Assembly: GCA_965227345.1 (NCBI GenBank) | Contig: OZ245755.1 | Span: forward strand, 286,527 to 350,526 | Direction of reading: 5' to 3' | DNA from: Sphingomonadales bacterium | GTDB taxonomy: Bacteria; Pseudomonadota; Alphaproteobacteria; Sphingomonadales; G965227345 | Length of the DNA stretch: 64,000 nucleotides | Made by a program: the position numbers and the translations under genes | In this document: positions 12,767 through 39,213 of the stretch, in pieces | Position numbering within the stretch: position 1 is the first letter of the stretch | How the letters are laid out: every line of letters starts with the position of its first letter | Notes under the pieces: model-generated | Told to the model about the DNA's origin: nothing | Seen by the model: the letters and a program-made list of their open reading frames with translations, nothing else | The model's database searches: none

Positions 12767-12776
12767 TATCTGGATC

Positions 12777-13637
12777 TCAGTTTTTGCTGGAAGGGGAAAG
12801 AAAAACCTGATCAACACGGCTCCAGCGAAAATCTCTTAACGCCGTCTTTAATTTGGACGCCATGACATCAAGGTTCGTGTAATGCCGAAATTTTGATTTG
12901 GCACTCGCATTGTTTTGCCGGGGTTGCCCCGGGTCTATTTCCCATGGATGAAAATAGAAAATACAGGGCTGTTGGTCCCGTTCATTGACCCGTCTCATCG
13001 CCCAGCGCGACAATGAATAGGGCAAAAGCCTGAAATACCCGCCGCCGCCGCACGGGATCCGCTTTCCCATCACCTCAACCGTTGTCACAGGTATCTCTGT
13101 GAAAGCCTTGTTTTTATCCGGCTGAAATGAGAAGCGCGGCGCGCCCGGCATGCCATAATGATCATGATGAATAGGATATACACTTGAACTGTACAGATAT
13201 CCCTCTTCGCCCAGTACATCAAGCGCCCAAAGATTACCGCTGCCGATTGAAAAACTGGCCGCCCGATACCCCTTAATTGCTTCACCCGATATATCTTCAA
13301 GCAAGGCCTTGCTTTGACGCACGTCTGCACGAAATTCCTCAGGTGTCTGGGCAAAGGCCCGCACGTGCTTCATGCCGTGACTGGCGATCTCGTGGCCCTC
13401 GGCGACAATGCGCTTGATGATTTGTGGATACCGCTCCGCAACCCAGCCCAATGTAAAGAATGTTGCCTTTACATCAGCTTCGGCAAAAATATCCAGTACC
13501 GCATTGGTATTCTGCTCAACGCGACAAGGCAATGTGTCCCAGTCTTTCGGATCAATGGTCTTTTCAAAGGCACCAACCTGAAAATAATCTTCCACATCGA
13601 CAGACATGGCGTTGATGATCTTGTTGTTATGCGCCAT
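12777..13637 (-). CDS. Polysaccharide deacetylase (NodB/CE4-like), XrtA-system type
   Basis: MSVDVEDYFQV N-terminus, plus the FFTLGW and EIASHG histidine motifs. Lies in the XrtA operon. Confidence 0.85.
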   Translation of the reverse strand: MAHNNKIINAMSVDVEDYFQVGAFEKTIDPKDWDTLPCRVEQNTNAVLDIFAEADVKATFFTLGWVAERYPQIIKRIVAEGHEIASHGMKHVRAFAQTPEEFRADVRQSKALLEDISGEAIKGYRAASFSIGSGNLWALDVLGEEGYLYSSSVYPIHHDHYGMPGAPRFSFQPDKNKAFTEIPVTTVEVMGKRIPCGGGGYFRLLPYSLSRWAMRRVNERDQQPCIFYFHPWEIDPGQPRQNNASAKSKFRHYTNLDVMASKLKTALRDFRWSRVDQVFLSPSSKN

Positions 13638-17189: not shown

Positions 17190-18770
17190 TTAAGAGGAGA
17201 TGGTTCCTCGCAAGACTTCAATAGCAACCACGCCACCATATGCGAAGAACAGTCCAGCCAGTCCTACCGAGAAAGCAATAAGATTCTTCACCTTGGCCCG
17301 CTTCTCGTTTTCCGTCAGGATCACCGTAATACTGCCCAGAACCGGTAGTGAAAAGGCATCGCGAAGACGTTGTGTCGTATTAAAGGTGGTGTGCAACTGG
17401 CTCAAGAGAAAGGCCACCGATACACCTGCACCCAAACCAACCAGCAGAACGCCTGACAGGAACAGCAACCTGTTCGGGCTGCTTGGCACCCGCGGCACGT
17501 CCGGTGGATCAATCACTTTAATCTGGACACCATCAGACTTTGTTTCCAGATCCTGGGCCAGGCGCGCAGATTCACGACGCTGGATCAGCTTCTGATAATT
17601 GGCATTGATCGTGCTGTAATCACGATTGAGGCGTGCAAGCTCTGCTTCCACCGCCGGCACGCGCTGCGCCATATCTTCATAGCGCTGAACGTCAGCCTTT
17701 TTCTGTTCCAGCCTGTCACGTAACGTCGCAAGTTGTGTCTCTGCCTCAATCAGACGGATCTTGATCTGTTCATAGATCGGGTTCGGCACCACATTTGCAC
17801 CTGACGGCACAAAGCTGCTGCCACCTTCCTCGATCTGCCCCTGAAGGACAGCCTGCTCATCAGCATATTCTTTTTTCAGTTCCTCTATGGTCTGACGCAT
17901 AATTTTTACGTCCGGGAACTCTTCGGTATAGCCACGTTCAAGCAATTCATCCAAACGACGCTGCTTTTGCGCAATGCGGCTGGCGACCCCGGACGATGAC
18001 ACGCCCCCGATAGGCGGCCCAAGGCCGCCTGTAGCCGTGATGAATGGCGGAATGCCAGCCAGTTGCCTGTCCAGCTCTGTGCGCTGCAGCTTGGCTTCAC
18101 GCAAGGCAGCATCAGCGGCAACCAGTTCGGCCCTGACCTGCTGCAAGCGGGAAAAATAAGATGAGTCACCCGGCAAAAAGCCCAAATTCTTCTGCTGGAA
18201 CTCGGCCATCCGACGTTCGGCGGCTTCAAGCTCCTGCTCGTGCTTGCGAACCTGCTCATCAATAAAACGACGGCTGCCAGCAAGGTCTTTACGATTGGCC
18301 CCGATATTCTCTTCCACAAAGAGCGTCAATAGCGACTGAACGACCTTTTTGGCAACCTGCGGGTCCTGATCTTCAAAACTCAGATTAAACAGGCTGGCAC
18401 CCTGCGCAGACAATCTGACATTTTCCTGAAGATTGCTTACAATATCTTCCAGTTCCTTGTCGTTCCTTGCGTTAAGGTCAAGGTCAGTCATGCGGACAAC
18501 TTTTTCCATGTTCGGTCGACTGATCAGGGTTTGCCGGATCATCATAATCTGTTGCATGCCGTCTGTATCGGCTGCAATGCCGCGCATCAGATTGCTCAGC
18601 ATTGTCTGCGTATCAACATAAATCCGGGCAGTTGCCTGATATTGGTTCGGTATCTGTGCGACAAAAAGCCAACCTGCGGTGCACACAACCCACGCTGCAA
18701 TCAATGCATACGCTTTGCGGCGCCAAATCTCGTGCAAGGCCGAGAGCAGTTGCTGGTATACTTCGTTCAT
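17190..18770 (-). CDS. Polysaccharide chain-length determinant (Wzz/PCP family), PEP-CTERM-locus type
   Basis: N-terminal and C-terminal TM helices flank a long coiled-coil periplasmic region. Immediately upstream of the autokinase. Confidence 0.8.
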   Translation of the reverse strand: MNEVYQQLLSALHEIWRRKAYALIAAWVVCTAGWLFVAQIPNQYQATARIYVDTQTMLSNLMRGIAADTDGMQQIMMIRQTLISRPNMEKVVRMTDLDLNARNDKELEDIVSNLQENVRLSAQGASLFNLSFEDQDPQVAKKVVQSLLTLFVEENIGANRKDLAGSRRFIDEQVRKHEQELEAAERRMAEFQQKNLGFLPGDSSYFSRLQQVRAELVAADAALREAKLQRTELDRQLAGIPPFITATGGLGPPIGGVSSSGVASRIAQKQRRLDELLERGYTEEFPDVKIMRQTIEELKKEYADEQAVLQGQIEEGGSSFVPSGANVVPNPIYEQIKIRLIEAETQLATLRDRLEQKKADVQRYEDMAQRVPAVEAELARLNRDYSTINANYQKLIQRRESARLAQDLETKSDGVQIKVIDPPDVPRVPSSPNRLLFLSGVLLVGLGAGVSVAFLLSQLHTTFNTTQRLRDAFSLPVLGSITVILTENEKRAKVKNLIAFSVGLAGLFFAYGGVVAIEVLRGTISS

Positions 18771-20022: not shown

Positions 20023-21915
20023 TCAACCCTTTTGTCTATTTTTCAGCAAGTTTCCTTGCGATTTTTGTTCTGTGTGCTTTTCAATCCACATATCAAGCAT
20101 GGCAATGTCCCACGCCATGCCATCTGTTGGCGAAGCCGTTGATTTTTGGCAATCCGATATCAGGCGATCAAGAAAGTCATTGCGCAGATATCCATGGCGA
20201 CGAAAATCTGAAATCCGGTCCAGGATCAGGGACTGCAAATTAGCATCCTGCTTTATCCAGACGTTGAAGGGCAATCCAAATCCGTGCTTTTCTTTCTTCA
20301 GCACTTCATCCGGGAGAAAATCTTTCATGGATTGCTTGTAGAAATGCCGCAACTTCATACCTGGCAACAACAAACTGGAGGGAATGCTGGCCGCGAAGGC
20401 AACAAGTTCATCATCAAGCAACGGATAGCGAACCTTAACACCGGCCAGCTGGCACATCTTGTTGACCTTGCGCAAGTCATTGTCCGCCAGTGTGATTTTA
20501 AGGTCCAGATGCATCATACGCTGAAGCATGGTCACAGATTTGGGTCGCAGATAGGCCTCTCGCAGGATATCCATCGGTTCATTAACATTGATATCGTCCA
20601 GCACATCGGCGCTCAGCACATCACCCGGCGTGCCATCGGCCAGAAAATTATGGGCGTAAATCCTCTCCGGCATGGGTGTCGCGAACCGTTCCGCCAGCCT
20701 GCGGGCCTTGCGCACCGGTGGAACAACCCCAAGACCCGGCAGTTTGGTCAGTGGTTCCATAATTCCAGATCGTATCCAACCCGGAATATGCCCGTAGGAT
20801 TCAATCCGTTTCATATACGCATAACGTTCGTTTCCGGCGAATATTTCATCACCGCCGTCCCCGGCCAAAAGTGTGGAAACCCCGTTGTCCCGAGCGGCCC
20901 TGGCGCAATAGAAAGCGGGCACCGCCGACGTATTGCCATATGGTTCATCGTAAACTTCAGCAATTTTAGGCATAAGGGACACCACATCATCAGGTGTCAC
21001 AAAATATTCGTGGTGGTCGGTCCTGAAATGTTCCGCCACCAGCCGCGCATATGCGCTTTCGTCATATTCCGGTTCGCGAAATCCAATGGTAAATGTTTTG
21101 GCATGTTCTCTCTGGCGGGATAAAAGGCCAGCCACAGTACTGCTGTCCAGCCCTCCACTCAAAAAGGCGCCAACTTCATTCCCGGCATCGCAGCCTTCAA
21201 CATATTTACTGAAATTCTTGTCGAGACACCCCCAAAGACGCTCTTTCCATTCCTCCATGTCACCAGATCGGGCAAGCGAATATGGCATTTCCCAGTAAAA
21301 CCGGGTCGTGATCCGGCCGGCCTTGAAATGAACAAGTTGCGCCGGCAGCAGCTTGGACTGCTCCCGGTAAATGGTTCCCGGTGACGAGACAATGTAATTG
21401 AACAGATAATTGTATATTGCCTGGTTTGATATCGTCGATGCCATATCAGGGTGGCATTTTACAGCGTCAGTCGTCGTGCCAAAACAAAAGAGGCCATTCG
21501 GGCCCTGACCGTAAACCAGCCCGTGTATGCCCATTCTGTCAATGGCGATTGTCGCCTCGCCGCTTTCCCTGTTGATGATCGCGACAGAGAAGGCACCATG
21601 CAAACGTTCAAAAACAGCTTCGCCATAAAGCTTGTACCCGTCTGCAAAGGCTTTGGCGTGCCCCAGGCTGTTCGCCGTATCCTGCAAGGCAGCGTCATTC
21701 CAGATTGGTTCACCGTCAATTGAACACATGACAGGCCCGGCGCACCAGACGTTGCCGGCACTTTTCAACGCGACAATACCTGCCGACGACAATGCTTCAC
21801 CAAGACCTTCCGGATGTGGATTAACCAGATCAAGTCCGGTCGCCATATTTTTGAGAATTACTTCGGGCGGAACGTCATGTGTATGTCCACCAACCCAACC
21901 TGCAATACCCATCAT
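20023..21915 (-). CDS. Asparagine-synthetase-family paralogue lacking the N-terminal catalytic Cys
   Basis: PP-loop SGGLDSS and the AsnB C-terminal domain are present. The N-terminus reads M-M-G-I-A-G where AsnB enzymes have M-C-G-I-A-G. Confidence 0.85.
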   Translation of the reverse strand: MMGIAGWVGGHTHDVPPEVILKNMATGLDLVNPHPEGLGEALSSAGIVALKSAGNVWCAGPVMCSIDGEPIWNDAALQDTANSLGHAKAFADGYKLYGEAVFERLHGAFSVAIINRESGEATIAIDRMGIHGLVYGQGPNGLFCFGTTTDAVKCHPDMASTISNQAIYNYLFNYIVSSPGTIYREQSKLLPAQLVHFKAGRITTRFYWEMPYSLARSGDMEEWKERLWGCLDKNFSKYVEGCDAGNEVGAFLSGGLDSSTVAGLLSRQREHAKTFTIGFREPEYDESAYARLVAEHFRTDHHEYFVTPDDVVSLMPKIAEVYDEPYGNTSAVPAFYCARAARDNGVSTLLAGDGGDEIFAGNERYAYMKRIESYGHIPGWIRSGIMEPLTKLPGLGVVPPVRKARRLAERFATPMPERIYAHNFLADGTPGDVLSADVLDDINVNEPMDILREAYLRPKSVTMLQRMMHLDLKITLADNDLRKVNKMCQLAGVKVRYPLLDDELVAFAASIPSSLLLPGMKLRHFYKQSMKDFLPDEVLKKEKHGFGLPFNVWIKQDANLQSLILDRISDFRRHGYLRNDFLDRLISDCQKSTASPTDGMAWDIAMLDMWIEKHTEQKSQGNLLKNRQKG

Positions 21916-21960
21916 TCGCCGTACACCTGTATCCAAATTATCCGAGAGACCGTATTGTTT

Positions 21961-23196
21961 CTAAACCAGCACTTCGACGGGGGCAGGATGCCCCAAAAAG
22001 GCTGTCGGGCTTGATGTCAATCCATAGGCACCGGACTGGAAAACGGCAACCAGGTCGCCAACCTCACCTTTTGGCACCATTATTTTGTCACCCAGACGGT
22101 CAAGTGGCGTGCACAGACACCCCACAATGTCGGCCTGCTCTACGGGTTCAAGGCCCATCTTGTTTGCAATGGCCACCGGGTAATTTTTCCGGATGACCTG
22201 ACCAAAATTTCCGGATGCGGAAAGTTGGTGATGCAAACCGCCATCCGTGATCAAGAAGACCTGGCCACGCGATTCCTTGCGATCCACAATACGCGATATG
22301 TAGACCCCTGCCTCACCGACGATATATCGGCCCAGCTCAACAACAATTTCAGCACCTTCCAGTTTTTCCAGTGCCGGGGGTAAAAGCTCTGCCAGTCTGT
22401 CACCGACCATATGAAGGGGTAAATCCTTGTCACCCGGAAAATACGGGATGCCAAAGCCCCCGCCAATATTGACCATACGCGGCGCACGCGGCGCAGACTT
22501 GCTTAAAGCGGCCGCCAACTCAAGCGCCTTTTCCTGTGCTTCGGAAATTGCTTCGTGCCGTAAATTCTGTGATCCACTGAATATGTGAAAGCCCCAAAAA
22601 TCGAGCCCCAACTCACCCAGGCGACCAAGCATGGCTGGCACCTTTTCAGCATCCACACCAAACTGCTTTGCGCCACCGCTCATACGCATACCCGAAGCTT
22701 TAAGCTCGAAATCCGGATTAACCCTGACGGCCACCCTGGCATTTACGCCCTGACCTTCGCAAAGCTCCGCAATGATTTCCATCTCATTTTCAGATTCCAT
22801 ATTGATCACAATGCCCGCGCCAACAGCCTGTGACAATTCAGCACGTGTTTTGCCCGGGCCAGCAAAGCTGATCAGTTCGGGATTGATACCAGTGTCCAGC
22901 GCCACTTTCATTTCGCCTGCCGAAGCCACATCAAGACCATCTGTGATCCCGGACAAATGCTGGACGACCGCCGGCATGGGGTTGGCCTTCATGGCATAAT
23001 GGATCTGTATTTCCCGGGGTAGCGCCTTACGCAATTCTTCAATCCGACCGGTCAACAGCGCCCTGTCATAGGCAAAAAACGGGGTTGACCCCACACGATC
23101 GGCAAGACGATCGACGTCAACACCGCCTATGGTCAGCTTGTTATTCTCGACGCCAAACCCCTTCAGGGGCGCGTGAACGGGCATTTCCTTATTCAT
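21961..23196 (-). CDS. Fold-type III PLP-dependent decarboxylase (Orn/DAP/Arg decarboxylase family), exosortase-A-associated type
   Basis: PLP-lysine context YAMKANP, plus GGGFGIPY and the C-terminal beta-barrel region (VGCLCTPLD). Its start overlaps the ligase stop (ATGA). Confidence 0.85.
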   Translation of the reverse strand: MNKEMPVHAPLKGFGVENNKLTIGGVDVDRLADRVGSTPFFAYDRALLTGRIEELRKALPREIQIHYAMKANPMPAVVQHLSGITDGLDVASAGEMKVALDTGINPELISFAGPGKTRAELSQAVGAGIVINMESENEMEIIAELCEGQGVNARVAVRVNPDFELKASGMRMSGGAKQFGVDAEKVPAMLGRLGELGLDFWGFHIFSGSQNLRHEAISEAQEKALELAAALSKSAPRAPRMVNIGGGFGIPYFPGDKDLPLHMVGDRLAELLPPALEKLEGAEIVVELGRYIVGEAGVYISRIVDRKESRGQVFLITDGGLHHQLSASGNFGQVIRKNYPVAIANKMGLEPVEQADIVGCLCTPLDRLGDKIMVPKGEVGDLVAVFQSGAYGLTSSPTAFLGHPAPVEVLV

Positions 23197-24791
23197 GGGG
23201 CTTTTGCCTTTTCCATTTCACTGAGTAGTTCTTCTGAAACCAGTTTGCGATCAATCTTGCCATTCGGGTTTCGTGGCAGATTTTCCCGCAGGTGTATTTG
23301 ATGCGGCACCATATAAGTTGGCATTTCCTGCCGACAATAGGCCCGCAATGTATCCTCTTCAAATACCTTGCCATCTCGCGCAGTGACAACCACCACAATC
23401 GACTGACCCAGTTTGTCATCGGACACGCCCATCGCAATCACCTCGGCAACCAGTCCGCTGGCATAAATCACTTCTTCCAGCTCCGTCGGGCTCACCCTGA
23501 AACCGGAGGTTTTGATCATCTCGTCATTCCGGCCAACGAAGTACAGAAAGCCATCCTTGTCCATCCGCACCTTGTCACCTGACCAGACCGCAATTTCCGT
23601 CAGGGGAATACCGGAAGGCTGTGCAGGGGCCGGTTTAAAGCGTTCAGCCGTACGCGCCGGATCATTCCAGTAGCCCAAGGCCACCAGCGCCCCGCGATGA
23701 ACCAGTTCACCAACTTCGTCCGGATCGCATGGCTCGCCATTTTCCCGCACAACCATAATCTCGGCATTCGGGATGGCCTTGCCAATAGAATCAGGCCTGC
23801 GATCAATTTCTTCAGGCGGCAGATAGGTTGACCGGAAAGCTTCCGTCAACCCGTACATAAGATAAACCTTCGTTTTCGGCAAAACGCTGCGCAACCGATC
23901 GACAATCGGGCGCGGCATACGACCCCCGGTGGTGGCGACATAGCGCAAGGTTTGCGCTGTTTCTTCGGGCCAATCCAGATCAGCAAGCTGAATCCACAAC
24001 GGCGGCACACATGTCAAACCGGTGATTTTGTGCGTCACAATCTGTTTAATGACATCGCGTGGCAAAAGATAATTCATCAGGACCACTTCGGCACCGGCAC
24101 AAAAACCGGTTGTCAGCTGGCTCAGCCCTGCATCAAAACTGAGCGGCAACACCGACAGGATGCGGTCATCTGCACTATTTTCAAGATACTGCGCAACACT
24201 GCGGGCCCCTGCAACCATATTACGATGGGAAAGCGTTACCCCCTTGGGCATTCCTGTACTGCCTGACGTGTAAAGGATGGCGGTCATATCCGTATCGATT
24301 GTGCGATGTACAGGCAAACCATCTTCACGGCCCCTGCTCACAAGATCGGGCCATGTCATGAATTCAATGCCTTCAAGGGCAATATCCGGGACATTGTTGT
24401 CTGTTACCACGATGTAACGCAGATCAGGACATTCTGATAAGATCTCGGCCAGACCCGCAAGCCGGTTGTTGCTGATCACCAGCACACGAACATTACAATT
24501 GGCGAGGATATAGCCCACCTGACGCGGCTTTAACGCAGGATTAACTGGCACAAAGGTACAGCCCCCTGCACTGGCACCAAACATGGACGCCACTGTTTCC
24601 ATCTGCTTGGGCAAATAAACGGCAACACGGTCAAACCGGGCAAGTCCCAGCGACATCATGGCTTTGGCAAAGACCTCTACTTCATCTGCAAGTTGGGCAT
24701 AAGTCCATATTTGATCCCGGTACACAAGCGCTCTGGCATCCGGGTTGCGGGCGGCGGACGCCCTGATCAGGTCTGGTAAAAGTTCAGTCAT
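23193..24791 (-). CDS. AMP-forming adenylating enzyme (acyl-CoA/acyl-carrier ligase), exosortase-A-associated type
   Basis: ANL-superfamily motifs: ILYTSGSTGMPKG, YGLTE, SGDKVRMDKDGFLYFVGRNDEMIK and PRNPNGKIDR. Confidence 0.9.
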   Translation of the reverse strand: MTELLPDLIRASAARNPDARALVYRDQIWTYAQLADEVEVFAKAMMSLGLARFDRVAVYLPKQMETVASMFGASAGGCTFVPVNPALKPRQVGYILANCNVRVLVISNNRLAGLAEILSECPDLRYIVVTDNNVPDIALEGIEFMTWPDLVSRGREDGLPVHRTIDTDMTAILYTSGSTGMPKGVTLSHRNMVAGARSVAQYLENSADDRILSVLPLSFDAGLSQLTTGFCAGAEVVLMNYLLPRDVIKQIVTHKITGLTCVPPLWIQLADLDWPEETAQTLRYVATTGGRMPRPIVDRLRSVLPKTKVYLMYGLTEAFRSTYLPPEEIDRRPDSIGKAIPNAEIMVVRENGEPCDPDEVGELVHRGALVALGYWNDPARTAERFKPAPAQPSGIPLTEIAVWSGDKVRMDKDGFLYFVGRNDEMIKTSGFRVSPTELEEVIYASGLVAEVIAMGVSDDKLGQSIVVVVTARDGKVFEEDTLRAYCRQEMPTYMVPHQIHLRENLPRNPNGKIDRKLVSEELLSEMEKAKAP

Positions 24792-25129
24792 GGTTATCAG
24801 TTACTATTATAGTTTCCGGGGCATTGTGATGTTATGTAATTGATTTACGGTCATTACGCTGATTGTCATATCGGCCAATCTAGTATTTGAATATTAGGAA
24901 AGTATGAATTTCCGGATGTTTTCATCAATATCATGCCTCTGGTGTTAACCACGTCCATTAACCATAATAACCTAATTGAAACGCGTCAGGATTGAAACAT
25001 CTCTGAACAGTGAAAATGGAAAGAATATGACGATCTTTTGTCAAGATCCGATTCGTAAACTGGATTTTAAGATTGAATGTGGGTATATGCCCCTGAAGGA
25101 CAGCACCAATCAAGGAACGGGATTCAGAG

Positions 25130-25378
25130 ATGAGCACACAGGGAAAAGTCAGAGAAATTCTTCGCAGCACGCTGCAACTGGGCGCAACAGCGGATACGCT
25201 TGAGCCTTCAACACCGCTACTGGGTAATCTGCCCGAGCTTGATTCGATGGCCGTTGCAACACTTGTGGCTGCGCTTGAAGAAAATTTTGATATTTACATT
25301 GATGACGATGAAATCAGTGCTGAAACATTCGAAACTTTTGGCAGCCTCTGTGAATTTGTCGACGAAAAAACAAGCTGA
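25130..25378 (+). CDS. Acyl/peptidyl carrier protein 1 (82 aa)
   Basis: Phosphopantetheine-attachment context LGNLPELDSMAVATLVAALEE. Four-helix carrier-protein size. Confidence 0.8.
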   Translation: MSTQGKVREILRSTLQLGATADTLEPSTPLLGNLPELDSMAVATLVAALEENFDIYIDDDEISAETFETFGSLCEFVDEKTS

Positions 25379-25406
25379 TTCTGGTCCCGCCAAAAGGTAG
25401 TCTGTT

Positions 25407-26114
25407 GTGCCCATGCCGTTTTACAGGTCGATAAGCAATACATTGCGTGAACTGGGCTGGCGCACGACGATGGTTCATGCAACCGACCGTATTTTGCGGG
25501 CATTAAATATCGGTCATATGTTCCGTTACGTGTTTTATCACCAGCCGGTTGCAGAACCGGTTGATCGCCGGTTTTTGTCGAGAACACTTCAATGTCGTGA
25601 GCTTGAAGCCGCTGACCTGGCGCTGTTACCCGAAGGCCCGGACGTTATTAACTACCGTCTTTCCGAAGGCGGAATCGCTGTCGGGGCCTTTAAGGATGGC
25701 GAATGCATTGCAACCCTTTGGTATACCATGGATATCTATAACGAAGACGAAGTCAGGGCCCGCTATCAGCCCCTGCCTCATGGCTCTTCCGCATGGGACT
25801 TTGGTGTCGGCGTCGCGCCCCAATACCGGATTGGCCGGACTTTTGTAACCTTGTGGGATGCCGGTATGGCATCAATGCGATCACACGGTTGCACAGCAAG
25901 CTTCAGCCGTATCAATGCAACCAATGCGGCTTCCATTACATCACACGCAAAACTTGGTGCCCGACCGCTGGGTTGCGCCACCTTCCTCACGTTGGGACCG
26001 GTACAGGTCGCCTGGTCATCACACACACCACGTTTTCATATTTCGCTCTCAAAAAATGCCATCCCGCTCTACCAGCTGCAGGCACCCGTTTCCCAATCCG
26101 GTCCCCAGGCCTGA
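25407..26114 (+). CDS. GNAT-like acyltransferase (divergent)
   Basis: The segment GVGVAPQYRIGRTFVTLWDAGMASMRSHGCTASFSRINATNAASITSHAKLG resembles GNAT motif A plus the following helix and strand. The match is weak and made by eye only. Start is GTG 25407 or ATG 25413. Confidence 0.45.
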   Translation: MPMPFYRSISNTLRELGWRTTMVHATDRILRALNIGHMFRYVFYHQPVAEPVDRRFLSRTLQCRELEAADLALLPEGPDVINYRLSEGGIAVGAFKDGECIATLWYTMDIYNEDEVRARYQPLPHGSSAWDFGVGVAPQYRIGRTFVTLWDAGMASMRSHGCTASFSRINATNAASITSHAKLGARPLGCATFLTLGPVQVAWSSHTPRFHISLSKNAIPLYQLQAPVSQSGPQA

Positions 26115-26190
26115 GCAAGCTGGATTTTTACACCAGAGGTGACTATAAATCAGTCAATACAATACATAGCGAGCATAAAGTGAGGCGCAA

Positions 26191-26451
26191 ATGACAATAG
26201 ACGACAGGGTGCGAGACGTGTTGCGCAATACCCTTCAGCTGGGAGAACAGGCAGATTCCTTTACCGAATCCACGCCCCTGCTCGGCAACCTTCCGGAACT
26301 GGACTCCATGGCTGTTGCAACATTGGTGGCGTCGCTGGAAGAGACATTTGATATTTATATCGAAGACGATGAAATCAGCGCGGAAACCTTTGAAACCTTT
26401 GGCAGCCTTTGCGCCTTTGTTGACGAAAAAGCCGACGTTCAGACAATATAA
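26191..26451 (+). CDS. Acyl/peptidyl carrier protein 2 (86 aa), paralogue of carrier protein 1
   Basis: Same LGNLPELDSMAVATLVASLEE motif. By hand alignment, 62 of 82 positions are identical to carrier protein 1. Confidence 0.8.
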   Translation: MTIDDRVRDVLRNTLQLGEQADSFTESTPLLGNLPELDSMAVATLVASLEETFDIYIEDDEISAETFETFGSLCAFVDEKADVQTI

Positions 26452-26493
26452 AGTCAGGTTTATTTTGACCACCAGACAGATTCGGATTGTGTT

Positions 26494-27306
26494 TTGAAGC
26501 CCTTGTTTCTGGAAACGCCTGCAGGTCGCATATTCGGGGTTTATCATGCCCCCGCTTCTGATATGCCGGATCATGGCGATATCATTTTCCTGCCGCCTTT
26601 TGCCGAAGAGCTGAACCGCGCGCGTCATATGATTAATCGTCAGGCCGCGAGTTTAAGCGCCGGGGGATATGGCGTTTTTATTCCTGACCTTTATGGCACC
26701 GGGGATAGCGAAGGTCGCTTTGATGAAAGTGGCTGGACGGAATGGGTCCAATCAATCGAAGCAGCACAATCCTGGCTTCAGGGTCAGGGGCGATCACGCA
26801 TATCCTTCTGGGCGATGCGCACAGGGGCGCTCCTGCTGGAAGATATTCAACTACAGGCCGGTACACCTTTCATTCTCTTGTGGAATCCGGTCTCCAACGG
26901 CGACACTTTTCTTAACCAGTTCCTGAGAATTCGAGTGTCTGGCGAGATGAGCGGCCAGCACAAGGAAACAACCAAAGAGCTAAGAGCCAGACTGACTGAT
27001 GGCGAGATTATTGAAGTGGGTGGCTATGGCCTGAATGGCCAGCTGGCGCATGATATATCCGGGAAGCGCCTGAAAAATTTTGCTGTTCCCCCTGCCTCCC
27101 GCATCATCTGGCTTGAAGTCGCGGCTACCAGTCCGGCCAGCCTGTCGCCTGCGGGTGAAAAACATATATCCCACTGGCAGGACAGCGGAGCGAATGTTCT
27201 GGGCACCTCCGTTACCGGCCCCATGTTCTGGGTTCTTCAGGAACCGGAATGGGCGGACGAGTTGCTGACGACGACCACCCGCCTTGTGCAGGATGTAAAA
27301 CAATGA
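26494..27306 (+). CDS. Alpha/beta-hydrolase-fold protein (exosortase-A-associated hydrolase 2 type)
   Basis: Topology pattern IIFLPPF ... DLYGTGDS ... ISFWAMRTGA. TTG start. Its stop overlaps the next gene's ATG. Confidence 0.6.
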   Translation: MKPLFLETPAGRIFGVYHAPASDMPDHGDIIFLPPFAEELNRARHMINRQAASLSAGGYGVFIPDLYGTGDSEGRFDESGWTEWVQSIEAAQSWLQGQGRSRISFWAMRTGALLLEDIQLQAGTPFILLWNPVSNGDTFLNQFLRIRVSGEMSGQHKETTKELRARLTDGEIIEVGGYGLNGQLAHDISGKRLKNFAVPPASRIIWLEVAATSPASLSPAGEKHISHWQDSGANVLGTSVTGPMFWVLQEPEWADELLTTTTRLVQDVKQ

Positions 27307-28166
27307 CGGCAGGCCGCGAAACCACCTTTACGTTTCAGGTTGATGATACCGAGTGTATCGGCATTGTGCATATGCCTGCGCAGATAAACAAAAGCGGTGT
27401 CGGCGTGATTATTCTGGTAGGTGGCCCACAATATCGGGTTGGCCCTCATCGCCAGTATGTTCATCTTGCCCGCCATCTGGCGCGCAACGGCATCCCGGCC
27501 ATGCGTTTTGATTTTCGGGGCGTAGGTGACAGCGATGGTCCCTACCCCGGCTTTGAAAATGTCGGCGATGACCTGAATGCAGCGGTGGCTGCCTTCAGGG
27601 AACACGTGCCCGCCGTGGAAAAAATCATCCCCTGGGGCCTGTGCGAAGGCGCATCTTCCATTCTCCTGACACTTTCAGATCACCCGGATATTGCAGGCGC
27701 CATACTTGCCAACCCCTGGGTGCGCACCCGGTCGGGGCTGGCAAAGGCCCACCTGAAGCATTATTACGGCAAACGATTTCTGGATATTGACTTCTGGAAA
27801 CGACTTTTTACCGGCAAGGCAAACCCTTTCAAAATCATCAAGTCATTGTCCTCCACCGTTCAAAACCTCTTCCGTCCAAAAGAAAAGGCCACGGGAGAGA
27901 TGCTGCCCTTCCCGGACAGGATGGCAAAAGGCCTCAACCAGTTTAACAAGCCTGTGTTGCTTGTTCAAAGCGGCAACGATCTGGTTGCGCGCGAGTTTGA
28001 TGATCTCACCCGGAACAACCCGAGCTGGGACGCGCTGAACAATGAGAATGTGACCCGATATGACCTGACCGGATCAGACCATACCTTTTCGGCCGAAAAA
28101 TGGCGCAGGGAAGTTGCAGAGCAATCAGAAACCTGGATCAGGCAGCTTTACGATACAGATCCCTGA
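27303..28166 (+). CDS. Alpha/beta-hydrolase-fold protein with a G-x-C-x-G nucleophile elbow (exosortase-A-associated hydrolase 1 type)
   Basis: VIILVGGPQYRVG ... FDFRGVGDS ... WGLCEGAS (Cys codon 27642-27644) ... SGNDLV ... GSDHTF. Confidence 0.7.
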   Translation: MTAGRETTFTFQVDDTECIGIVHMPAQINKSGVGVIILVGGPQYRVGPHRQYVHLARHLARNGIPAMRFDFRGVGDSDGPYPGFENVGDDLNAAVAAFREHVPAVEKIIPWGLCEGASSILLTLSDHPDIAGAILANPWVRTRSGLAKAHLKHYYGKRFLDIDFWKRLFTGKANPFKIIKSLSSTVQNLFRPKEKATGEMLPFPDRMAKGLNQFNKPVLLVQSGNDLVAREFDDLTRNNPSWDALNNENVTRYDLTGSDHTFSAEKWRREVAEQSETWIRQLYDTDP

Positions 28167-29142
28167 CTTTAATTGGTGAAGAAGCTTCGCCCCCGATCTC
28201 ATTGATAAAAAATGAGAAATACTGATCCATCTTTTCCAGAAATGCATCCCGATCTTCTGCCGATTTTACATAGGGTGAGCCGCCGGGCAGAAGCGATGAA
28301 CTGTGATATGTGTAACTGAATATCCTGTTGCCGCGCGCAAGCAACGCGCGGGTAAGGCGCTTGTGCTCCGTCAGGGAAATCCCCTCCGGGGTCAAATTGA
28401 TCCGCTCACACAGGCCAAGGCGCGACAATATACCCGGCAGATGCAGCTTGATACCGGCCGGGCGGGCGATCACGGGGTGAATATGATGCCCCCAACGACC
28501 CAGCACACCCGAAAACCCGCTTGTTAACGGCACTTCCAATAATTCTGCCTTGCTGCCAAACCAGTAAGGTTGATCAGGCAATCCCCTGAAATTGGGGCCC
28601 AGTTCCTTGCTAAAATCTGTATGTGGCACCACACTCGCGTCAATTTCATACCCCAGCTTTTCCAGTATTGCCGTCGTTGCCGGGCCATAACCATAACGAC
28701 CCGCTTTATATATGACCGGTCGTTTTCCAATATTTTCGGTGATCAGGTCTGTCAGGTTCACAAGCTTTTTCTCTTCAAGCCCGGCCGGCAAATTTCCCGG
28801 ATAGGAATTGTGCTCGTTCACCTTTTCATCATACGGCGGATTGACCCAGGGGTGCAAATGCGTCCCGACAATACAGCGGGATTCGCGTTGTAGATTGCGG
28901 AAGATTTCTGCCGATACATCCGTAGATGCCACGGGATGATCAATGACATAGGTGGGCACAATGCCATGTCGTTCAAAGACGTCCTGGGCGCGCAACTGTT
29001 CCGGAATACATTTCACGGATCTGTTTTCACGAGCAAACCTTGCCGACCAGTCGAATTCCTCTTCCGTATCAATAACAACGACCAGCTGCGGCCTGATATC
29101 TTTCGGCGCAAGCGGTGTCTCGGACGGTTCAGGATGGATCAT
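28138..29142 (-). CDS. WalW-like / polysaccharide-deacetylase-like protein
   Basis: N-terminal LVVVIDTEEEFDWS pattern. A 334-aa soluble protein, convergent with hydrolase 1 (29-nt 3' overlap). Confidence 0.55.
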   Translation of the reverse strand: MIHPEPSETPLAPKDIRPQLVVVIDTEEEFDWSARFARENRSVKCIPEQLRAQDVFERHGIVPTYVIDHPVASTDVSAEIFRNLQRESRCIVGTHLHPWVNPPYDEKVNEHNSYPGNLPAGLEEKKLVNLTDLITENIGKRPVIYKAGRYGYGPATTAILEKLGYEIDASVVPHTDFSKELGPNFRGLPDQPYWFGSKAELLEVPLTSGFSGVLGRWGHHIHPVIARPAGIKLHLPGILSRLGLCERINLTPEGISLTEHKRLTRALLARGNRIFSYTYHSSSLLPGGSPYVKSAEDRDAFLEKMDQYFSFFINEIGGEASSPIKVRDLYRKAA

Positions 29143-32098: not shown

Positions 32099-33382
32099 AT
32101 GAATTTTCAAATGAGTATGAAAGAGAGATTAACCCGATTCTTTCGCGATCTGGATGCAAGGGTGGCCGATCACGTCGGCCCCATACGTGTGTTATTTGTC
32201 GTTCGCAATGAAATCGGCTTTGCCAATCAGGCGCCTGTCATCCGGGAGATGCTCAACAGTCGCGAGATTTCCATACGCACCATGCCTGACACCGAAACGG
32301 GATCTGTTTTATTTACTGACCCGGAATTGAAATCCCTGTACCAAAGCCTTGAAATCGCCCCGATAACAGCTGTCTTCAGGAAATGGCATTATCGAATTTG
32401 TACCGACATGTTAAATACCTATTTCAAGCGGGATTCAATTCATATCACGATCGGACACGGCGCCTCGTTTGGTAATCTGGCAGCGGGTAAGGACTGGATC
32501 ACCCAGCAGGCACTGCAACCCTCGCTGAGTATGCTTTTTGGCACCAGCCCCTGGTTAAAAAAGCATATAGAATCAGGGCATCCCGGCCTCTTCAATCCGG
32601 AAAAGAAACTGTTTATTGCAACAGGGTTCCCCAAGCTTGATGCGCTGGTGAATAATACATTCTCACGAGAGGAAACACTGGCGGCACTTGGCTTGCCAAC
32701 TGACCGGAAAACCGTTCTGGTCACCTCGCACTGGACACCATCATCCATCCTTGCCACGTGGAAGGAAAACATTATTGACAATCTGGCACCATTGGATGAT
32801 GAATTGAATGTCATTGTAACTGCGCACCCCAATCTCTGGAATGAAGTTGAGGAAAACGGTCTGGATGGCCAAAAACTGTGGCAACAACTAAAAGTCAGGG
32901 AACAGGAACATACGAATATTCGTGTTATAAAGTCTGGCAATTCCCTGAAATTGTTACACGCAGCTGACCTGCTGATTTTTGATAACAGTTCAATTCGGGT
33001 AGAATATTCAGCTCTGGATCGCCCCGCCCTGTTTTTCAAGAACCCCGATCATCATTTTTTTTCGCCCGTCACACAAAAACTGTATGAAGAAAGTGCTGAC
33101 TGTTTTTCGTCTCTGGATAATTTTGCCGAACTGGTTCTCGCCGCTTTGGAAAACCCGGAACGGAATATGCAGGGGCGCAGGGCCTTGCAGGATTATTTTC
33201 TTTGCAATGTCGGTAAAAGTTCAAAAACAATCACTGACATCATATTGAAGGTTGGCAGGATATCAAATCAAAGGTCTGCGAACTGGTCAAAGGCGGCGTC
33301 GCTGTATACCCGAAGCGGTCAGGAAAATGCAAAATCTGACACCCGGATAGAAAGTTCTGCCGTCTATCCATCTACACAGTAA
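32099..33382 (+). CDS. TagB/TagF-like (CDP-glycerol glycerophosphotransferase fold) protein, paralogue 1
   Basis: Colinear with the TagF catalytic-domain landmarks: IGHGASFG, GFPKLD, VLVTSHWT, VTAHPNLW and ADLLIFDNSSIRVEYSALDRPALFF (compare D-x-LITDYSS ... FD ... L-x-KP-x-IFF). Confidence 0.55.
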   Translation: MNFQMSMKERLTRFFRDLDARVADHVGPIRVLFVVRNEIGFANQAPVIREMLNSREISIRTMPDTETGSVLFTDPELKSLYQSLEIAPITAVFRKWHYRICTDMLNTYFKRDSIHITIGHGASFGNLAAGKDWITQQALQPSLSMLFGTSPWLKKHIESGHPGLFNPEKKLFIATGFPKLDALVNNTFSREETLAALGLPTDRKTVLVTSHWTPSSILATWKENIIDNLAPLDDELNVIVTAHPNLWNEVEENGLDGQKLWQQLKVREQEHTNIRVIKSGNSLKLLHAADLLIFDNSSIRVEYSALDRPALFFKNPDHHFFSPVTQKLYEESADCFSSLDNFAELVLAALENPERNMQGRRALQDYFLCNVGKSSKTITDIILKVGRISNQRSANWSKAASLYTRSGQENAKSDTRIESSAVYPSTQ

Positions 33383-33451: not shown

Positions 33452-34666
33452 ATGAACATTAAAACCAGGGTTCTTTCAGGAATACGGCTGCTTGACGACA
33501 TGATCACGGAGCATTTTGGTCCGATCAGGGTGATTTTTGTTGTCCGAAACGAAATGGGTTTTGCAAATCAGGCCCCCGTTATCCATGAGCTGGAGAAAAA
33601 CCCGGAAATAATGATCGCCACAACCTCTGACGGTGAGGAGAATGATTTTCACTTCGAGGATGATGCCCTTCGCATTTTATATGAAAAATATAAAATCTCG
33701 CCGATTACCGCAGTTTACAAGAAATGGCATTATCTTGTTTGTACCGATATCCTGAATCTATATTTCCGTCGGGATGCTGTTCATGTTGCCATCTCACACG
33801 GATGTTGCTTCGGCAATGGCAACGAACGAACAAACTGGATTGTAAACGAAGCATTACAGCCTTCCGTGAAAATGGTATTCGGCCATAGTCCCTGGCTCAA
33901 GCACTATATCGAGGAAACAGCCCCGAAGGCATTTGAAACCGGTGACAAGCTGTTCTTTGCCACGGGCTTTCCAAAGCTGGACTCTCTGTACAACGGCAAA
34001 TATTCGCGTGATCAAACGCTTGGGTCTTTTAACCTGTCTCCGGCGCGGAAAACAATCCTGATCAGCTCACACTGGACCCCCACATCGCTTCTGGCAACAT
34101 GGCAGGAAAAGATTGTTCAAAGTCTTGTGAACATCGCAGCAGACTATAATATTATTGTCACCGCCCATCCAAAATTATGGAAGATCAACAGTTCGGATGG
34201 ATTCAATGGGAAAATACTGTGGAAAAAGCTGAAAGAAATTGAAGAATCAAATGCAAATATCAGAGTAACACAGTCCAGCAATTCCCTCAGTCTGCTAAAT
34301 GCCACCGATTTACTGATATGTGACAACAGCTCCATACGTGTTGAATATGGTATTCTGGACCGCCCGGCACTGTTGTTCAAACACCCCGATTTTCAGTTCT
34401 TCTCACCGGTTACACAAAATTTGTATGAAGACAGCTCGTCCTGCTTCTCGTCACTGGAGAATTTCCAAAATCTGGTGCAACATACGCTGGAGCATCCGAT
34501 GGAGAAAACGTCGGGCCAGTTGGCACTCAGAGATCATTTCCTGCATAATCCTGGGAATGCCGCCAAATGCATATCTACAATTATCGAAAAAACAGGGCGC
34601 ATATCAAGCCCTAATTCTCCAGCCTGGAAAAAAGCCGTCAAATTAAGCAAACAAATGTCAGGTTAG
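33452..34666 (+). CDS. TagB/TagF-like protein, paralogue 2
   Basis: Similar over its full length to the preceding gene: ISHGCCFG, GFPKLD, ILISSHWT, VTAHPKLW and TDLLICDNSSIRVEYGILDRPALLF. Confidence 0.55.
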   Translation: MNIKTRVLSGIRLLDDMITEHFGPIRVIFVVRNEMGFANQAPVIHELEKNPEIMIATTSDGEENDFHFEDDALRILYEKYKISPITAVYKKWHYLVCTDILNLYFRRDAVHVAISHGCCFGNGNERTNWIVNEALQPSVKMVFGHSPWLKHYIEETAPKAFETGDKLFFATGFPKLDSLYNGKYSRDQTLGSFNLSPARKTILISSHWTPTSLLATWQEKIVQSLVNIAADYNIIVTAHPKLWKINSSDGFNGKILWKKLKEIEESNANIRVTQSSNSLSLLNATDLLICDNSSIRVEYGILDRPALLFKHPDFQFFSPVTQNLYEDSSSCFSSLENFQNLVQHTLEHPMEKTSGQLALRDHFLHNPGNAAKCISTIIEKTGRISSPNSPAWKKAVKLSKQMSG

Positions 34667-39200: not shown

Positions 39201-39213
39201 GATCGGGAAAAAC

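Follow-up and report, generated by a model that had tools for sequence, protein, structure and literature searches.

Within the window, by which we mean the whole 64,000-nucleotide stretch of Sphingomonadales DNA analysed here, a cassette of eight open reading frames lies in a canonical XrtA/PEP-CTERM setting, at the head of the core array of exopolysaccharide (EPS) genes, a position that it also occupies in Emcibacter relatives. All eight frames of a preliminary description of this DNA are present at the coordinates then assigned, and the two divergent operons which it placed around a 338-bp spacer (24792-25129) are borne out, the spacer separating the ATG of an adenylate-forming ligase (24791, minus strand) from that of the carrier protein ACP1 (25130). 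Within this divergent intergenic region a sigma-70-like ATAACA-18-TATAAT is found on the minus strand at 24835-24806, though such matches are no more numerous here than in shuffled sequence, and no sigma-54 site was found in the spacer. The minus operon encodes the ligase, a PLP decarboxylase and a paralogue of AsnB; the plus operon encodes ACP1, a GNAT-like protein, a second carrier protein (ACP2) and two alpha/beta-fold proteins. Both ATGA stop/start overlaps claimed for these operons are as described: one joins the ligase stop to the decarboxylase start (23196-23193, minus strand) and the other joins the two alpha/beta-fold genes (27303-27306, plus strand). Hydrophobic segments are absent from all eight proteins.

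The ligase, the decarboxylase and both alpha/beta-fold 'hydrolases' had been described as exosortase-A-associated families, and a search with the NCBIfam models agrees, all four exceeding the curated cut-offs: the ligase matches TIGR03098 (791.6 bits; cut-off 592), the decarboxylase TIGR03099 (598.9 bits; cut-off 478), 'hydrolase 2' TIGR03101 (246.4 bits; cut-off 203) and 'hydrolase 1' TIGR03100 (286.3 bits; cut-off 168). In gene order hydrolase 2 comes first, followed by hydrolase 1.

VinN (3wvn) is the best single-domain PDB match of the ligase (23193..24791, minus strand) at 201.5 bits, the 286 bits scored by LgrA being the sum of several matched stretches across the two A domains of that protein. 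VinN is also the closest match to the A4-A5 specificity region. D220, T288 and R320 of the ligase align with D230, S299 and R331 of VinN; the Asp and the Arg are shared by 75 of 75 homologues, each of which has either Ser or Thr at position 288. The A4 motif is the NRPS-type SFDAG and not the PLFH of acyl-CoA ligases. Over the full length of the protein the margin of VinN over the best acyl-CoA ligase in the PDB is only about 28 bits, and the next-best NCBIfam matches after the ligase's own family model are fatty-acid-CoA ligases (329 bits). We predict a VinN-like enzyme that loads Asp or Glu on an ACP through the side-chain carboxyl. L-aspartate is the most likely substrate, with L-glutamate as the alternative, and sequence alone does not separate the two; a diamino acid, which the preliminary description had also entertained, is less likely.

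The adjacent fold-type-III PLP decarboxylase (21961..23196, minus strand) has the BtrK structures 7ru7 and 2j66 as its top PDB matches (257 bits, E 3e-75, 37% identity over 387 residues), a lead of 86 bits over the best DAP decarboxylase (171 bits). Every catalytic PLP motif is retained, and residues K70 (the PLP lysine, in YAMKANP), GGG245-247, E287, C362 and Y391 are conserved among 81 sequences. The enzyme is predicted to be an aminoacyl-ACP alpha-decarboxylase of the BtrK/VinO type, translationally coupled to the ligase. The earlier suggestion that a carrier is loaded with an acidic amino acid, which is decarboxylated while tethered, in the manner of BtrI/BtrJ/BtrK, is supported by the homology of both enzymes.

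The joining of Asp or Glu to an ACP via its side chain, with subsequent PLP decarboxylation, is described for butirosin, closthioamide, fluvirucin, vicenistatin and bolagladin (PMC11350588, PMC11284099, PMC7756342), so that the 'unknown chemistry' first ascribed to the cassette was overstated for these two steps, whose paradigm is set in at least five natural-product pathways. In the VinN/VinL/VinO (vicenistatin), FlvN/FlvL/FlvO (fluvirucin) and BolO/BolC/BolN (bolagladin) systems, a stand-alone ANL ligase charges a free-standing ACP with (methyl)aspartate through its beta-carboxyl, and a PLP decarboxylase then yields the beta-aminoacyl-ACP (PMC11284099, PMC7756342). Of the solved structures VinN is the most similar to the window ligase, which retains counterparts of VinN Asp230, Ser299 and Arg331. 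Those systems, however, supply PKS or NRPS assembly lines of actinomycetes and Burkholderia. The cassette includes neither PKS nor NRPS and lacks a second ligase of the VinM type and an acyltransferase of the VinK type; it belongs to an XrtA exopolysaccharide locus and is accompanied by a GNAT, a Cys/Arg pair of alpha/beta-fold proteins and an AsnB paralogue. CtaD/CtaE/CtaF of closthioamide, which we liken to the cassette by their described chemistry, also turn aspartate on a carrier protein into beta-alanyl-S-carrier by decarboxylation, but the product is a thiotemplated polythioamide antibiotic and the source an anaerobe (PMC11350588). For the decarboxylase the nearest solved relative is BtrK, from the pathway to the butirosin side chain, which acts on the ACP-tethered gamma-L-Glu-S-BtrI, although the two enzymes are only 37% identical. 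BtrJ is an ATP-grasp ligase and not an ANL enzyme, and the butirosin product ends on the amino group of a sugar-type acceptor, its transfer proceeding via BtrH and BtrG, neither of which is related to the GNAT or the alpha/beta-fold proteins of the window.

Both small frames of the plus operon encode PP-binding carriers with a DSM serine: ACP1 (25130..25378; 82 aa; PF00550, 30.2 bits) and ACP2 (26191..26451; 86 aa; PF00550, 25.7 bits), which are 76% identical. Ser39 of ACP1 (ELDSMAV) is invariant across 38 homologues and is conserved in ACP2 too; most other genomes have a single ACP copy where there are two here. Between them lies the GNAT-like frame (25413..26114), first called at 235 aa but probably starting at ATG 25413 to give 233 aa. 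Pfam and NCBIfam searches returned no match for it, the family being modelled in neither, and the 'GNAT-like' label is upheld by fold: an AF2 model built with 60 sequences as input has a pLDDT of 92.8, and Foldseek found 121 PDB matches at E<=1e-3, the best 50 of the 121 being GNAT-type acetyltransferases or uncharacterised proteins. Representative homologues number 519, and certain homologues of the domain are fusions with Acetyltransf_6 domains. In five further genomes this gene adjoins ACP and alpha/beta-hydrolase genes in every case, and ligase-decarboxylase-AsnB in four.

In hydrolase 1 (27303..28166, plus strand) Cys114, Asp226 and His260 form a triad, each residue of which is at least 95% conserved among 30 homologues; its G-L-C-E-G aligns with the G-L-S-M-G of esterase 7q4h, as does the DHTF histidine motif. 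The triad suggests an acyl-S-enzyme transferase, and transfer is favoured over hydrolysis because the nucleophile elbow carries Cys. In hydrolase 2 (26494..27306, plus strand) an invariant Arg109 lies opposite this Cys114 (hhalign, probability 97.8%), and no conserved His is present. With Arg at the nucleophile position, hydrolase 2 is probably a non-catalytic partner.

The AsnB paralogue ('asnB2'; 20023..21915, minus strand), whose start is probably ATG 21915 and not TTG 21936, reaches only 288.8 bits against TIGR03108 (cut-off 816.9), in a match starting at residue 98; the true TIGR03108 gene of the window is a separate one at 6841-8742. The paralogue begins MMGIAGW (MSGLCGW in beta-proteobacterial homologues) where the true amidotransferase has MCGLVG, and hence lacks the N-terminal nucleophile cysteine of the glutaminase, while the ATP PP-loop SGGLDS is kept at residue 260. 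It is 27% identical to asnB1, and its top PDB match is the hydroxyamidotransferase 7ylz. Beyond the cassette a WalW-type gene (28138..29142, minus strand) is convergent with hydrolase 1, which it overlaps by 29 nt. Its protein has no Pfam or NCBIfam match but more than 6000 homologues, which in Kordiimonas and Emcibacter are annotated by NCBI as 'WalW protein' or 'polysaccharide deacetylase family protein'; an unrelated PdaB/PgaB-like deacetylase holds a comparable position in 12 other loci.

Gene neighbourhoods were counted in the 80 closest genomic loci: 77 have the ligase next to the decarboxylase, 54 have the AsnB paralogue after the decarboxylase, and about 31-34 have a triplet of ACP, hydrolase 2 and hydrolase 1 no more than 10 kb away. 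The arrangement of the cassette is not chance. About half of the loci, mainly from Nitrosomonas and Nitrosospira, have no ACP or hydrolase gene within 10 kb of the ligase-decarboxylase pair, and in those the carrier is encoded at another site or is not used. A DegT sugar aminotransferase is a recurrent neighbour (24 loci), FemAB-like Acetyltransf_6 GNATs stand immediately upstream of the ACP (14 and 9 loci), and deacetylases and a GT4 glycosyltransferase also recur. Two of these amino-sugar clues from other genomes, the DegT aminotransferase and the Acetyltransf_6 gene, are absent from this window.

We propose, with a probability of about 0.55, that the cassette encodes a cytoplasmic carrier-protein-dependent route in which an omega-aminoacyl thioester is made and delivered to the exopolysaccharide pathway. 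Homology speaks strongly for the first two steps: the ligase would adenylate the side-chain carboxyl of L-aspartate and thioesterify it to holo-ACP1 or ACP2, and the PLP decarboxylase would strip the tethered amino acid of its free alpha-carboxyl, leaving beta-alanyl-S-ACP (or GABA-S-ACP). The roles of the GNAT, the two alpha/beta-fold proteins and asnB2 are read from gene context, which argues moderately for a third step in which a sugar of the EPS repeat unit, linked to a nucleotide or a lipid, would receive the aminoacyl group on an amine or possibly on a hydroxyl. One candidate for the N-acyltransferase is the GNAT-fold protein; hydrolase 1, which could carry the acyl group as a thioester on Cys114, is also a candidate, with hydrolase 2, which has no nucleophile, as its non-catalytic partner. 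The acceptor amine may be exposed by the neighbouring WalW-type protein, a candidate deacetylase for this purpose. More speculatively, the glutaminase-dead AsnB paralogue, its ATP site intact, might form an amide from a carboxylate, of which a uronic acid is one possibility, and an amine other than glutamine-derived ammonia. The recurrence of aminotransferases, deacetylases and FemAB-like GNATs nearby points to N-acylation of a cytoplasmic amino sugar. We know of no EPS from an XrtA organism in which beta-alanine or GABA has been reported. Transfer to the EPS or to PEP-CTERM cargo had been envisaged at first, but direct transfer to the exported form of either is unlikely for eight proteins that have no hydrophobic segment, and a sugar precursor in the cytoplasm is the more probable acceptor.

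An unlikely alternative is a lipid or lipo-amino-acid pathway, in which the ligase would activate a fatty acid, as a FAAL or an acyl-ACP synthetase does, and a GNAT would N-acylate an amino acid or amine supplied by the decarboxylase. The curated name of the ligase family, 'acyl-CoA ligase', and the long-chain fatty-acid-CoA ligases next in rank fit this view, as do 13 Nitrosomonas-type loci where ligase-decarboxylase(-AsnB) is followed by a TIGR03694 PEP-CTERM-associated acyltransferase. The beta-alanyl-ACP of bolagladin receives an N-linked fatty acyl group (PMC7756342), and a hybrid route to N-acyl-beta-alanyl-ACP is therefore conceivable. However, invariant Asp220 and Arg320 with the SFDAG motif indicate an A domain that binds an amino dicarboxylate and not a fatty-acid pocket, the decarboxylase resembles BtrK, an enzyme with an ACP substrate, and no TIGR03694 gene lies near the cassette in the window.

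It is rather improbable that the aminoacyl-ACP is made as we propose but serves a small diffusible metabolite or oligo-amide, for example by the thiotemplated oligomerisation of beta-alanine known from closthioamide, the Cys-hydrolase here serving for condensation or chain release. All pathways known to load and decarboxylate in this way make secondary metabolites (PMC11350588, PMC11284099), and the two ACP copies, the AsnB-type amide synthetase and an alpha/beta-fold Cys nucleophile suited to thioester-to-thioester transfer would accord with such a product; against it, the cassette and its conserved neighbours contain no PKS, NRPS condensation or KAS gene, the cassette heads the core EPS array, and in other genomes it is interleaved with sugar aminotransferase, glycosyltransferase and deacetylase genes. 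That the substrates are free, the decarboxylase being a DAP-, ornithine- or lysine-decarboxylase paralogue that releases a free amine, the ligase forming a CoA thioester and the ACPs and hydrolases standing apart, is very improbable: the decarboxylase reaches 241 bits against the lysA model, and about half of the loci have no ACP gene within 10 kb, but that score is under the cut-off of 298, every DAP decarboxylase ranks below BtrK, ligase and decarboxylase are strictly adjacent and translationally coupled, and ACP and alpha/beta-hydrolase genes accompany the GNAT family in every examined context (ligase-decarboxylase in 4/5).

As to the proposed delivery to the EPS pathway, the Dlt system of D-alanylation (DltA/DltC/DltB/DltD) and the Alm system, which adds glycine to lipid A (AlmE/AlmF/AlmG), resemble the cassette in that an ANL ligase charges a small carrier with an amino acid bound for an envelope polymer. 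Unlike the cassette, their ligases act on Ala or Gly through the alpha-carboxyl, no decarboxylation occurs, and they need a DltB MBOAT and DltD, or the AlmG lipid A acyltransferase; no DltB-type MBOAT, DltD or AlmG-type acyltransferase is found among the annotated ORFs of the locus, which makes this previously drawn analogy the weaker one.

A comparison on the acceptor side is the Wbp/Vim linking-sugar pathway of type IX secretion (VimA, VimE, WbpS), in which a FemAB-like GNAT N-aminoacylates an N-acetyl sugar once its acetyl group has been removed, the uronic acid is modified by an AsnB-type amidotransferase, and the free amine of the aminoacyl group takes the C-terminus of sortase-processed cargo (PMC7468200). 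VimA has been linked to TIGR03019, and an amino-acid-modified sugar in exosortase systems has been speculated upon (PMC7468200). The window has the matching trio of TIGR03019 FemAB, TIGR03006 deacetylase and TIGR03108 amidotransferase, whereas the Wbp/Vim pathway uses no ACP, ligase or decarboxylase. The cassette would be an additional or alternative supply of aminoacyl groups, the XrtA linking sugar itself being putative. What is new is that a predicted chemistry of loading and decarboxylation, familiar from antibiotic pathways, is assigned for the first time to these widespread 'function unknown' genes.

The preliminary description had proposed that an acidic amino acid is loaded onto a carrier protein and decarboxylated while tethered, in the manner of the butirosin side-chain set BtrI/BtrJ/BtrK, and homology now lends this prediction support. 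The genes concerned form two divergent sets around a 338-bp spacer (24792-25129), as first drawn. By ORF scan, the minus strand carries the ligase (23193-24791, 532 aa), the decarboxylase (21961-23196, 411 aa) and an AsnB paralogue (20023-21936, 637 aa), and the plus strand carries ACP1 (25130-25378, 82 aa), a GNAT-fold protein (25407-26114, 235 aa, or 233 aa from the alternative start at 25413), ACP2 (26191-26451, 86 aa) and two alpha/beta-fold proteins (26494-27306, 270 aa; 27249-28166, with 287 aa from the ATG at 27303). The ATGA stop/start overlaps expected between ligase and decarboxylase (23196-23193, minus strand) and between the two alpha/beta-fold genes (27303-27306, plus strand) are both present. 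An HMM search against the exosortase-A-associated models, which had been called for, placed four cassette proteins above the curated whole-protein cut-offs of their NCBIfam models: the ligase in TIGR03098 (791.6 bits, cut-off 592), the decarboxylase in TIGR03099 (598.9 bits, cut-off 478), hydrolase 1 in TIGR03100 (286.3 bits, cut-off 168) and hydrolase 2 in TIGR03101 (246.4 bits, cut-off 203). By these assignments of 26494-27306 and 27303-28166, hydrolase 2 precedes hydrolase 1. The four models are classed as 'hypothetical equivalogs' and take their names solely from an association with exosortase A, in agreement with the earlier statement on how the proteins are catalogued. A literature search of partial coverage returned no functional study for TIGR03098-03101, for 'exosortase A system-associated' or for BtrK/VinO together with exosortase, and within that coverage we found no paper assigning the chemistry discussed here to these families.

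The cassette, in which ligase adjoins decarboxylase and hydrolase 1 adjoins hydrolase 2, belongs to an XrtA/PEP-CTERM type-1 EPS locus, and the window contains XrtA-EpsI, a PEP-CTERM protein and proteins of TIGR03007, 03018, 03016, 03015, 03006, 03019, 03087, 03108 and 03097. The minus operon is the head of a co-directional array whose members include a TIGR03027 export protein, a chain-length determinant, a tyrosine kinase, a TIGR03016 outer-membrane protein, a TIGR03015 ATPase, a TIGR03006 deacetylase, a TIGR03019 protein of the FemAB family, the glycosyltransferase stp1, an XrtA-EpsI fusion, a serine protease and the true TIGR03108 amidotransferase, which scores 1057 bits. Beyond the other end of the cassette lie a WalW-type deacetylase-family gene, a TIGR03097 O-antigen-ligase-like protein, wecB, several glycosyltransferases and the PEP-CTERM protein. 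Housekeeping genes bound the whole EPS locus: pstCAB-phoU-phoB at one end, and at the other formate dehydrogenase, pyruvate carboxylase and feoB. GC content and skew around the cassette gave no island signature. No sigma-54 promoter was found in the 338-bp spacer, window-wide sigma-54 matches being at shuffle expectation, and the sigma-70 and terminator scans gave counts no higher than in shuffles. Hydrolase 1 and the WalW-type gene on the opposite, minus strand overlap convergently at their 3' ends by 29 nt (28138-28166).

The decarboxylase, a fold-type-III PLP enzyme by its matches to PF02784 and PF00278, has BtrK as its top two matches among all PDB sequences (257 bits, E 3e-75, 37% identity over 387 aligned residues), and the deposition bears the title 'L-glutamyl-[BtrI acyl-carrier protein] decarboxylase'. 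The best diaminopimelate decarboxylase in the PDB scored 171 bits and the ornithine decarboxylases about 65 or less; by PDB bit scores, the cassette protein is nearer BtrK than the free-substrate decarboxylases. On sequence, then, its nearest neighbour is the one structurally characterised member of the fold that acts on a carrier-tethered amino acid. K70 (the PLP lysine, in YAMK70ANP), H204, GGG245-247, E287, C362 and Y391 are conserved in 81 members of the family, and with this full catalytic set the protein looks catalytically competent. It is a putative aminoacyl-ACP decarboxylase of the BtrK/VinO class, VinO being the corresponding enzyme of vicenistatin biosynthesis.

For the ligase, the best single-domain PDB match is VinN, the vicenistatin ligase (3wvn, 201.5 bits), with FadD5 the best of the acyl-CoA ligases at 173 bits, and across the full length of the protein the lead of VinN over the acyl-CoA ligases is modest. 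LgrA was rejected as the closest structure: its 286 bits are a sum over several stretches of two A domains, and no single stretch scores above 161 bits. The identification of 3wvn as CmiS6 was likewise wrong, the entry being identical, within the aligned A4-A5 region, to 3wv4, which we take to be VinN. When this substrate-determining A4-A5 stretch alone was searched against the PDB, VinN again came first, scoring 49 bits where the family in second place reached 34. The alignment pairs SFD220AG of the ligase with SWD230FG of VinN, T288 (in ATTGG) with Ser299 (in TNSAA) and R320 (in TEAFR) with Arg331 (in TECKR), so that equivalents of VinN Asp230, Ser299 and Arg331 are all found within the ANL fold; all 75 homologues keep Asp220 and Arg320, and position 288 is Ser in 50 of them and Thr in 25. 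In the acyl-CoA ligases recovered in the same search, the Asp is replaced by His or another residue and the Arg by Gly, Ser or Pro. In VinN, Asp230 binds the amino group and Ser299 and Arg331 bind the free alpha-carboxylate, and these residues also served to predict aspartate loading by the bolagladin ligase BolO (PMC7756342). The conserved VinN-like residues of the ligase therefore predict a substrate with a free alpha-amino acid head group that is activated at its side-chain carboxyl. We predict aspartate as the most economical substrate, because the residue geometry is identical to that of VinN, with glutamate as the alternative, a pair that the sequence does not separate.

The two alpha/beta-fold proteins depart from the serine hydrolases, neither having the full set of a G-x-S-x-G serine, an aspartate and a histidine. 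At the site where esterases from its Pfam family show G-L-S-M-G, hydrolase 1 reads G-L-C114-E-G; the catalytic Asp and His of those esterases are matched by its Asp226 and His260 (motif DHTF), and C114, D226 and H260 are each conserved at 95% or more in 30 homologues. A profile-profile alignment of the two families (97.8% probability) pairs Cys114 with an invariant residue of hydrolase 2, Arg109, and hydrolase 2 has no conserved histidine. The arrangement Cys114-Asp226-His260 points to hydrolase 1 as a putative Cys-Asp-His enzyme suited to thioester-to-thioester acyl uptake; its translationally coupled paralogue, hydrolase 2, most likely has no catalytic activity. The solved relatives of both are generic esterases and uninformative on substrate. 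With a Cys nucleophile in 'hydrolase 1' and none in 'hydrolase 2', we suggest that the present names look misleading.

Two stand-alone ACP genes sit across the spacer from the ligase. About half of the related loci have no ACP gene within 10 kb, and most related genomes have a single copy. ACP1 and ACP2 are both PP-binding proteins by Pfam, the serine of their PELDSMAV motif is conserved in 38 homologues, and the two share 76% protein identity and about 70% DNA identity. The protein between them had been labelled GNAT-like, and its fold bears this out: the AF2 model (pLDDT 92.8 with a 60-sequence alignment, 32 from the single sequence) has 121 Foldseek matches in the PDB at E<=1e-3, and the 50 listed of these are GNAT-type acetyltransferases (VipF, MshD, tandem-GNAT proteins) or uncharacterised proteins. 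No Pfam or NCBIfam model (NCBIfam at E<=1e-3) matches the 233-aa protein itself, which at the same NCBIfam threshold belongs neither to TIGR03694, the PEP-CTERM-associated N-acyl amino acid synthases, nor to TIGR03019 (FemAB). A word-indexed homology search with the single sequence returned only the query, and homologues were gathered by a profile seeded with seven genomic homologues derived from tblastn. This profile found more than 500 relatives and an exhaustive search gave 519 representative clusters, a separate family, some members of which pass the PF00583 cut-off. Some homologues are joined to tandem FemAB-like Acetyltransf_6 domains, to an ATP-grasp (D-Ala-D-Ala-ligase-like) domain in one case, or to a membrane VTT domain (P0130, P0151, P0144, P0128); these may be genuine fusions or may stem from errors in gene calling. 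The neighbour family 'c16' (237 aa) is a TPR protein and was rejected as a distant GNAT homologue (hhalign probability 0.1%).

In the gene-call tables of five further genomes, ACP and alpha/beta-hydrolase genes stand beside the GNAT gene in all five, and in four ligase-decarboxylase-AsnB is no more than a few kilobases away from it, the GNAT gene coming directly ahead of them in three. The commonest layout elsewhere has ACP, then hydrolase 2, then hydrolase 1 running leftwards and, divergent from them, GNAT, ligase, decarboxylase and AsnB running rightwards. Compared with those genomes, the GNAT gene of the window sits in the opposite operon and is bracketed by the two ACP copies (25130-26451), and there seems therefore to have been, in this lineage, a duplication of the ACP and a relocation or inversion of the GNAT gene.

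The cassette was compared with its 80 closest loci in a collection of species-level genomes, where the highest identities, in Emcibacter and other Alphaproteobacteria, are 64-69%. Ligase adjoins decarboxylase in 77 of these, the AsnB paralogue is next in line in 54, and the triplet ACP-hydrolase 2-hydrolase 1 is found within 10 kb in about 31-34. All ORFs of the 80 loci were clustered and the frequent clusters annotated, and the recurrent neighbours include a DegT-type sugar aminotransferase (24 loci), FemAB-like Acetyltransf_6 proteins (single in 14 loci, tandem in 9, mostly directly upstream of the ACP), a PdaB/PgaB-like deacetylase (12 loci) and, after hydrolase 1, a GT4 glycosyltransferase and a small TPR protein. 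The window lacks the DegT-type aminotransferase and has instead the WalW-type gene convergent with hydrolase 1; homology between this gene (orf334) and the PdaB-like deacetylase seen at other loci was rejected (hhalign probability 0.3%), and orf334 belongs to a separate WalW-type family. In nitrosomonads PrsK-PrsR lies upstream of the cassette and a TIGR03694 PEP-CTERM-associated acyltransferase downstream (13 loci). The order in Nitrosomonas (L011, L026, L028, L029, L031, L035 and others) is PrsK-PrsR-ligase-decarboxylase-(AsnB)-TIGR03694, then a 420-aa protein of unknown function and a dCache/PAS/GGDEF/EAL protein, and the cassette there thus adjoins the two-component regulator of the system and a c-di-GMP enzyme. 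In Candidatus Accumulibacter proximus (L071), a second, divergent ligase (35% identity, 12584-14179) and decarboxylase (39%, 17267-18556) are found downstream of the canonical pair at a distance of a few kilobases, with a homologue of the 233-aa GNAT protein between the two sets; the second set may represent a paralogous cassette that acts on a different substrate. In a metagenomic relative (L084), a 770-aa protein with fatty-acid-hydroxylase, exosortase and EpsI domains is encoded beside the cassette (1946-4258, minus strand), and a CapK-type AMP-binding protein is also close by.

The AsnB paralogue is 27% identical to the true amidotransferase of the locus and keeps the PP-loop SGGLDS; its score against TIGR03108 (288.8 bits) is below the cut-off of 816.9. 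Its N-terminus reads MMGIAGW against MCGLVG in the true amidotransferase and so lacks the Cys2 nucleophile; relatives in Emcibacter have Ser at this position, and those of beta-proteobacteria read MSGLCGW, where a Cys is present, yet away from position 2. This clade thus has no glutaminase nucleophile. The best solved relative is the hydroxyamidotransferase 7ylz, which we take to be an AsnB homologue amidating a carboxylic acid other than aspartate. Floc formation in Zoogloea is reported to require two asparagine-synthase paralogues (work summarised in PMC7662799).

Taken together, the first half of the cassette would work like the vicenistatin ligase/ACP/decarboxylase set VinN/VinL/VinO and like BtrI/BtrJ/BtrK: the ligase would load Asp or Glu onto an ACP through the side-chain carboxyl, and the PLP decarboxylase would remove the alpha-carboxyl of the amino acid on the carrier. 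These two steps rest on specific sequence evidence and, by analogy, on a well-documented enzymological paradigm in natural products (PMC11350588, PMC11284099, PMC7756342). The cassette is not a Dlt or Alm envelope system, to which a likeness was also suggested, since the defining membrane partners are missing, neither a DltB MBOAT protein nor DltD nor the AlmG lipid A acyltransferase being among the ORFs of 6-43 kb scanned against NCBIfam or Pfam. In a third step of the carrier-tethered pathway, an amino sugar precursor would receive the resulting beta-alanyl or 4-aminobutyryl group, an acceptor that we infer because sugar-modifying neighbours recur and because hydrolase 1 is Cys-type and transferase-like. 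As none of the eight cassette proteins has a hydrophobic segment and there is no MBOAT-type transporter, this transfer is more probably cytoplasmic. A fourth step would, speculatively, involve the AsnB paralogue. The first half of the pathway is known as chemistry; what is new is its EPS/exosortase setting and the Cys/Arg alpha/beta-fold pair.

The FemAB protein, deacetylase and amidotransferase of the surrounding locus have been related to VimA, VimE and WbpS of the type IX secretion pathway that makes a 'linking sugar' (PMC7468200), and the authors of that work speculate that exosortase systems may likewise join cargo to an amino-acid-modified sugar. By this analogy, the cassette could be the source of a second, non-proteinogenic aminoacyl group for the linking-sugar role. 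In its fullest form the proposal is that a sugar in the XrtA-associated polysaccharide acquires a beta-alanyl or 4-aminobutyryl group from the cassette, that the free primary amine of this group is the nucleophile, long sought, to which exosortase A joins the new C-termini of cleaved PEP-CTERM proteins, and that the Cys-type enzyme and its dead paralogue are an ACP-to-sugar aminoacyl transferase of a new kind; we give this about one chance in seven. Such a carrier-protein-made linking sugar would parallel that of type IX secretion, which carries a seryl or glycyl group.

Several other features of the EPS locus were recorded. A sigma-54-type site with one mismatch, TGGCATCAGGTTTGCA (39780-39795, plus strand), precedes the PEP-CTERM gene (39897-40574) by about 100 nt, although such sites are no more frequent across the window than in shuffles; PEP-CTERM genes are reported to be RpoN/PrsR-dependent, with which the site agrees. 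Also just upstream of this gene, at the edge of the locus, is a tRNA-Arg (anticodon TCT; 39125-39201, minus strand). Within the locus, a 288-aa protein (37786-38652, plus strand) has a C-type lectin domain (PF00059, 26 bits) and no NCBIfam match, and next to wecB two paralogous neighbours (32099-33382 and 33452-34666, plus strand) match the CDP-glycerol glycerophosphotransferase family (PF04464), a hint that the polymer may contain phosphodiester-linked units. Just outside it lies a type III PKS/KAS III-like gene (43928-45016, minus strand; DpgA model, 138 bits, below cut-off).

Four TIGRFAM families that have so far been 'exosortase A system-associated' by name, without a function, thereby acquire a concrete chemical prediction: Asp or Glu would be loaded onto an ACP and 44 Da then lost, giving beta-alanyl- or GABA-ACP. 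Many bacteria of environmental and technical importance carry these families, and among the relatives recovered are Nitrosomonas, Nitrosospira, Accumulibacter, Propionivibrio, Massilia and Emcibacter. If the product reaches the polysaccharide, it would provide a cationic or nucleophilic handle on floc and biofilm EPS, and may bear on what the cleaved PEP-CTERM protein is joined to.
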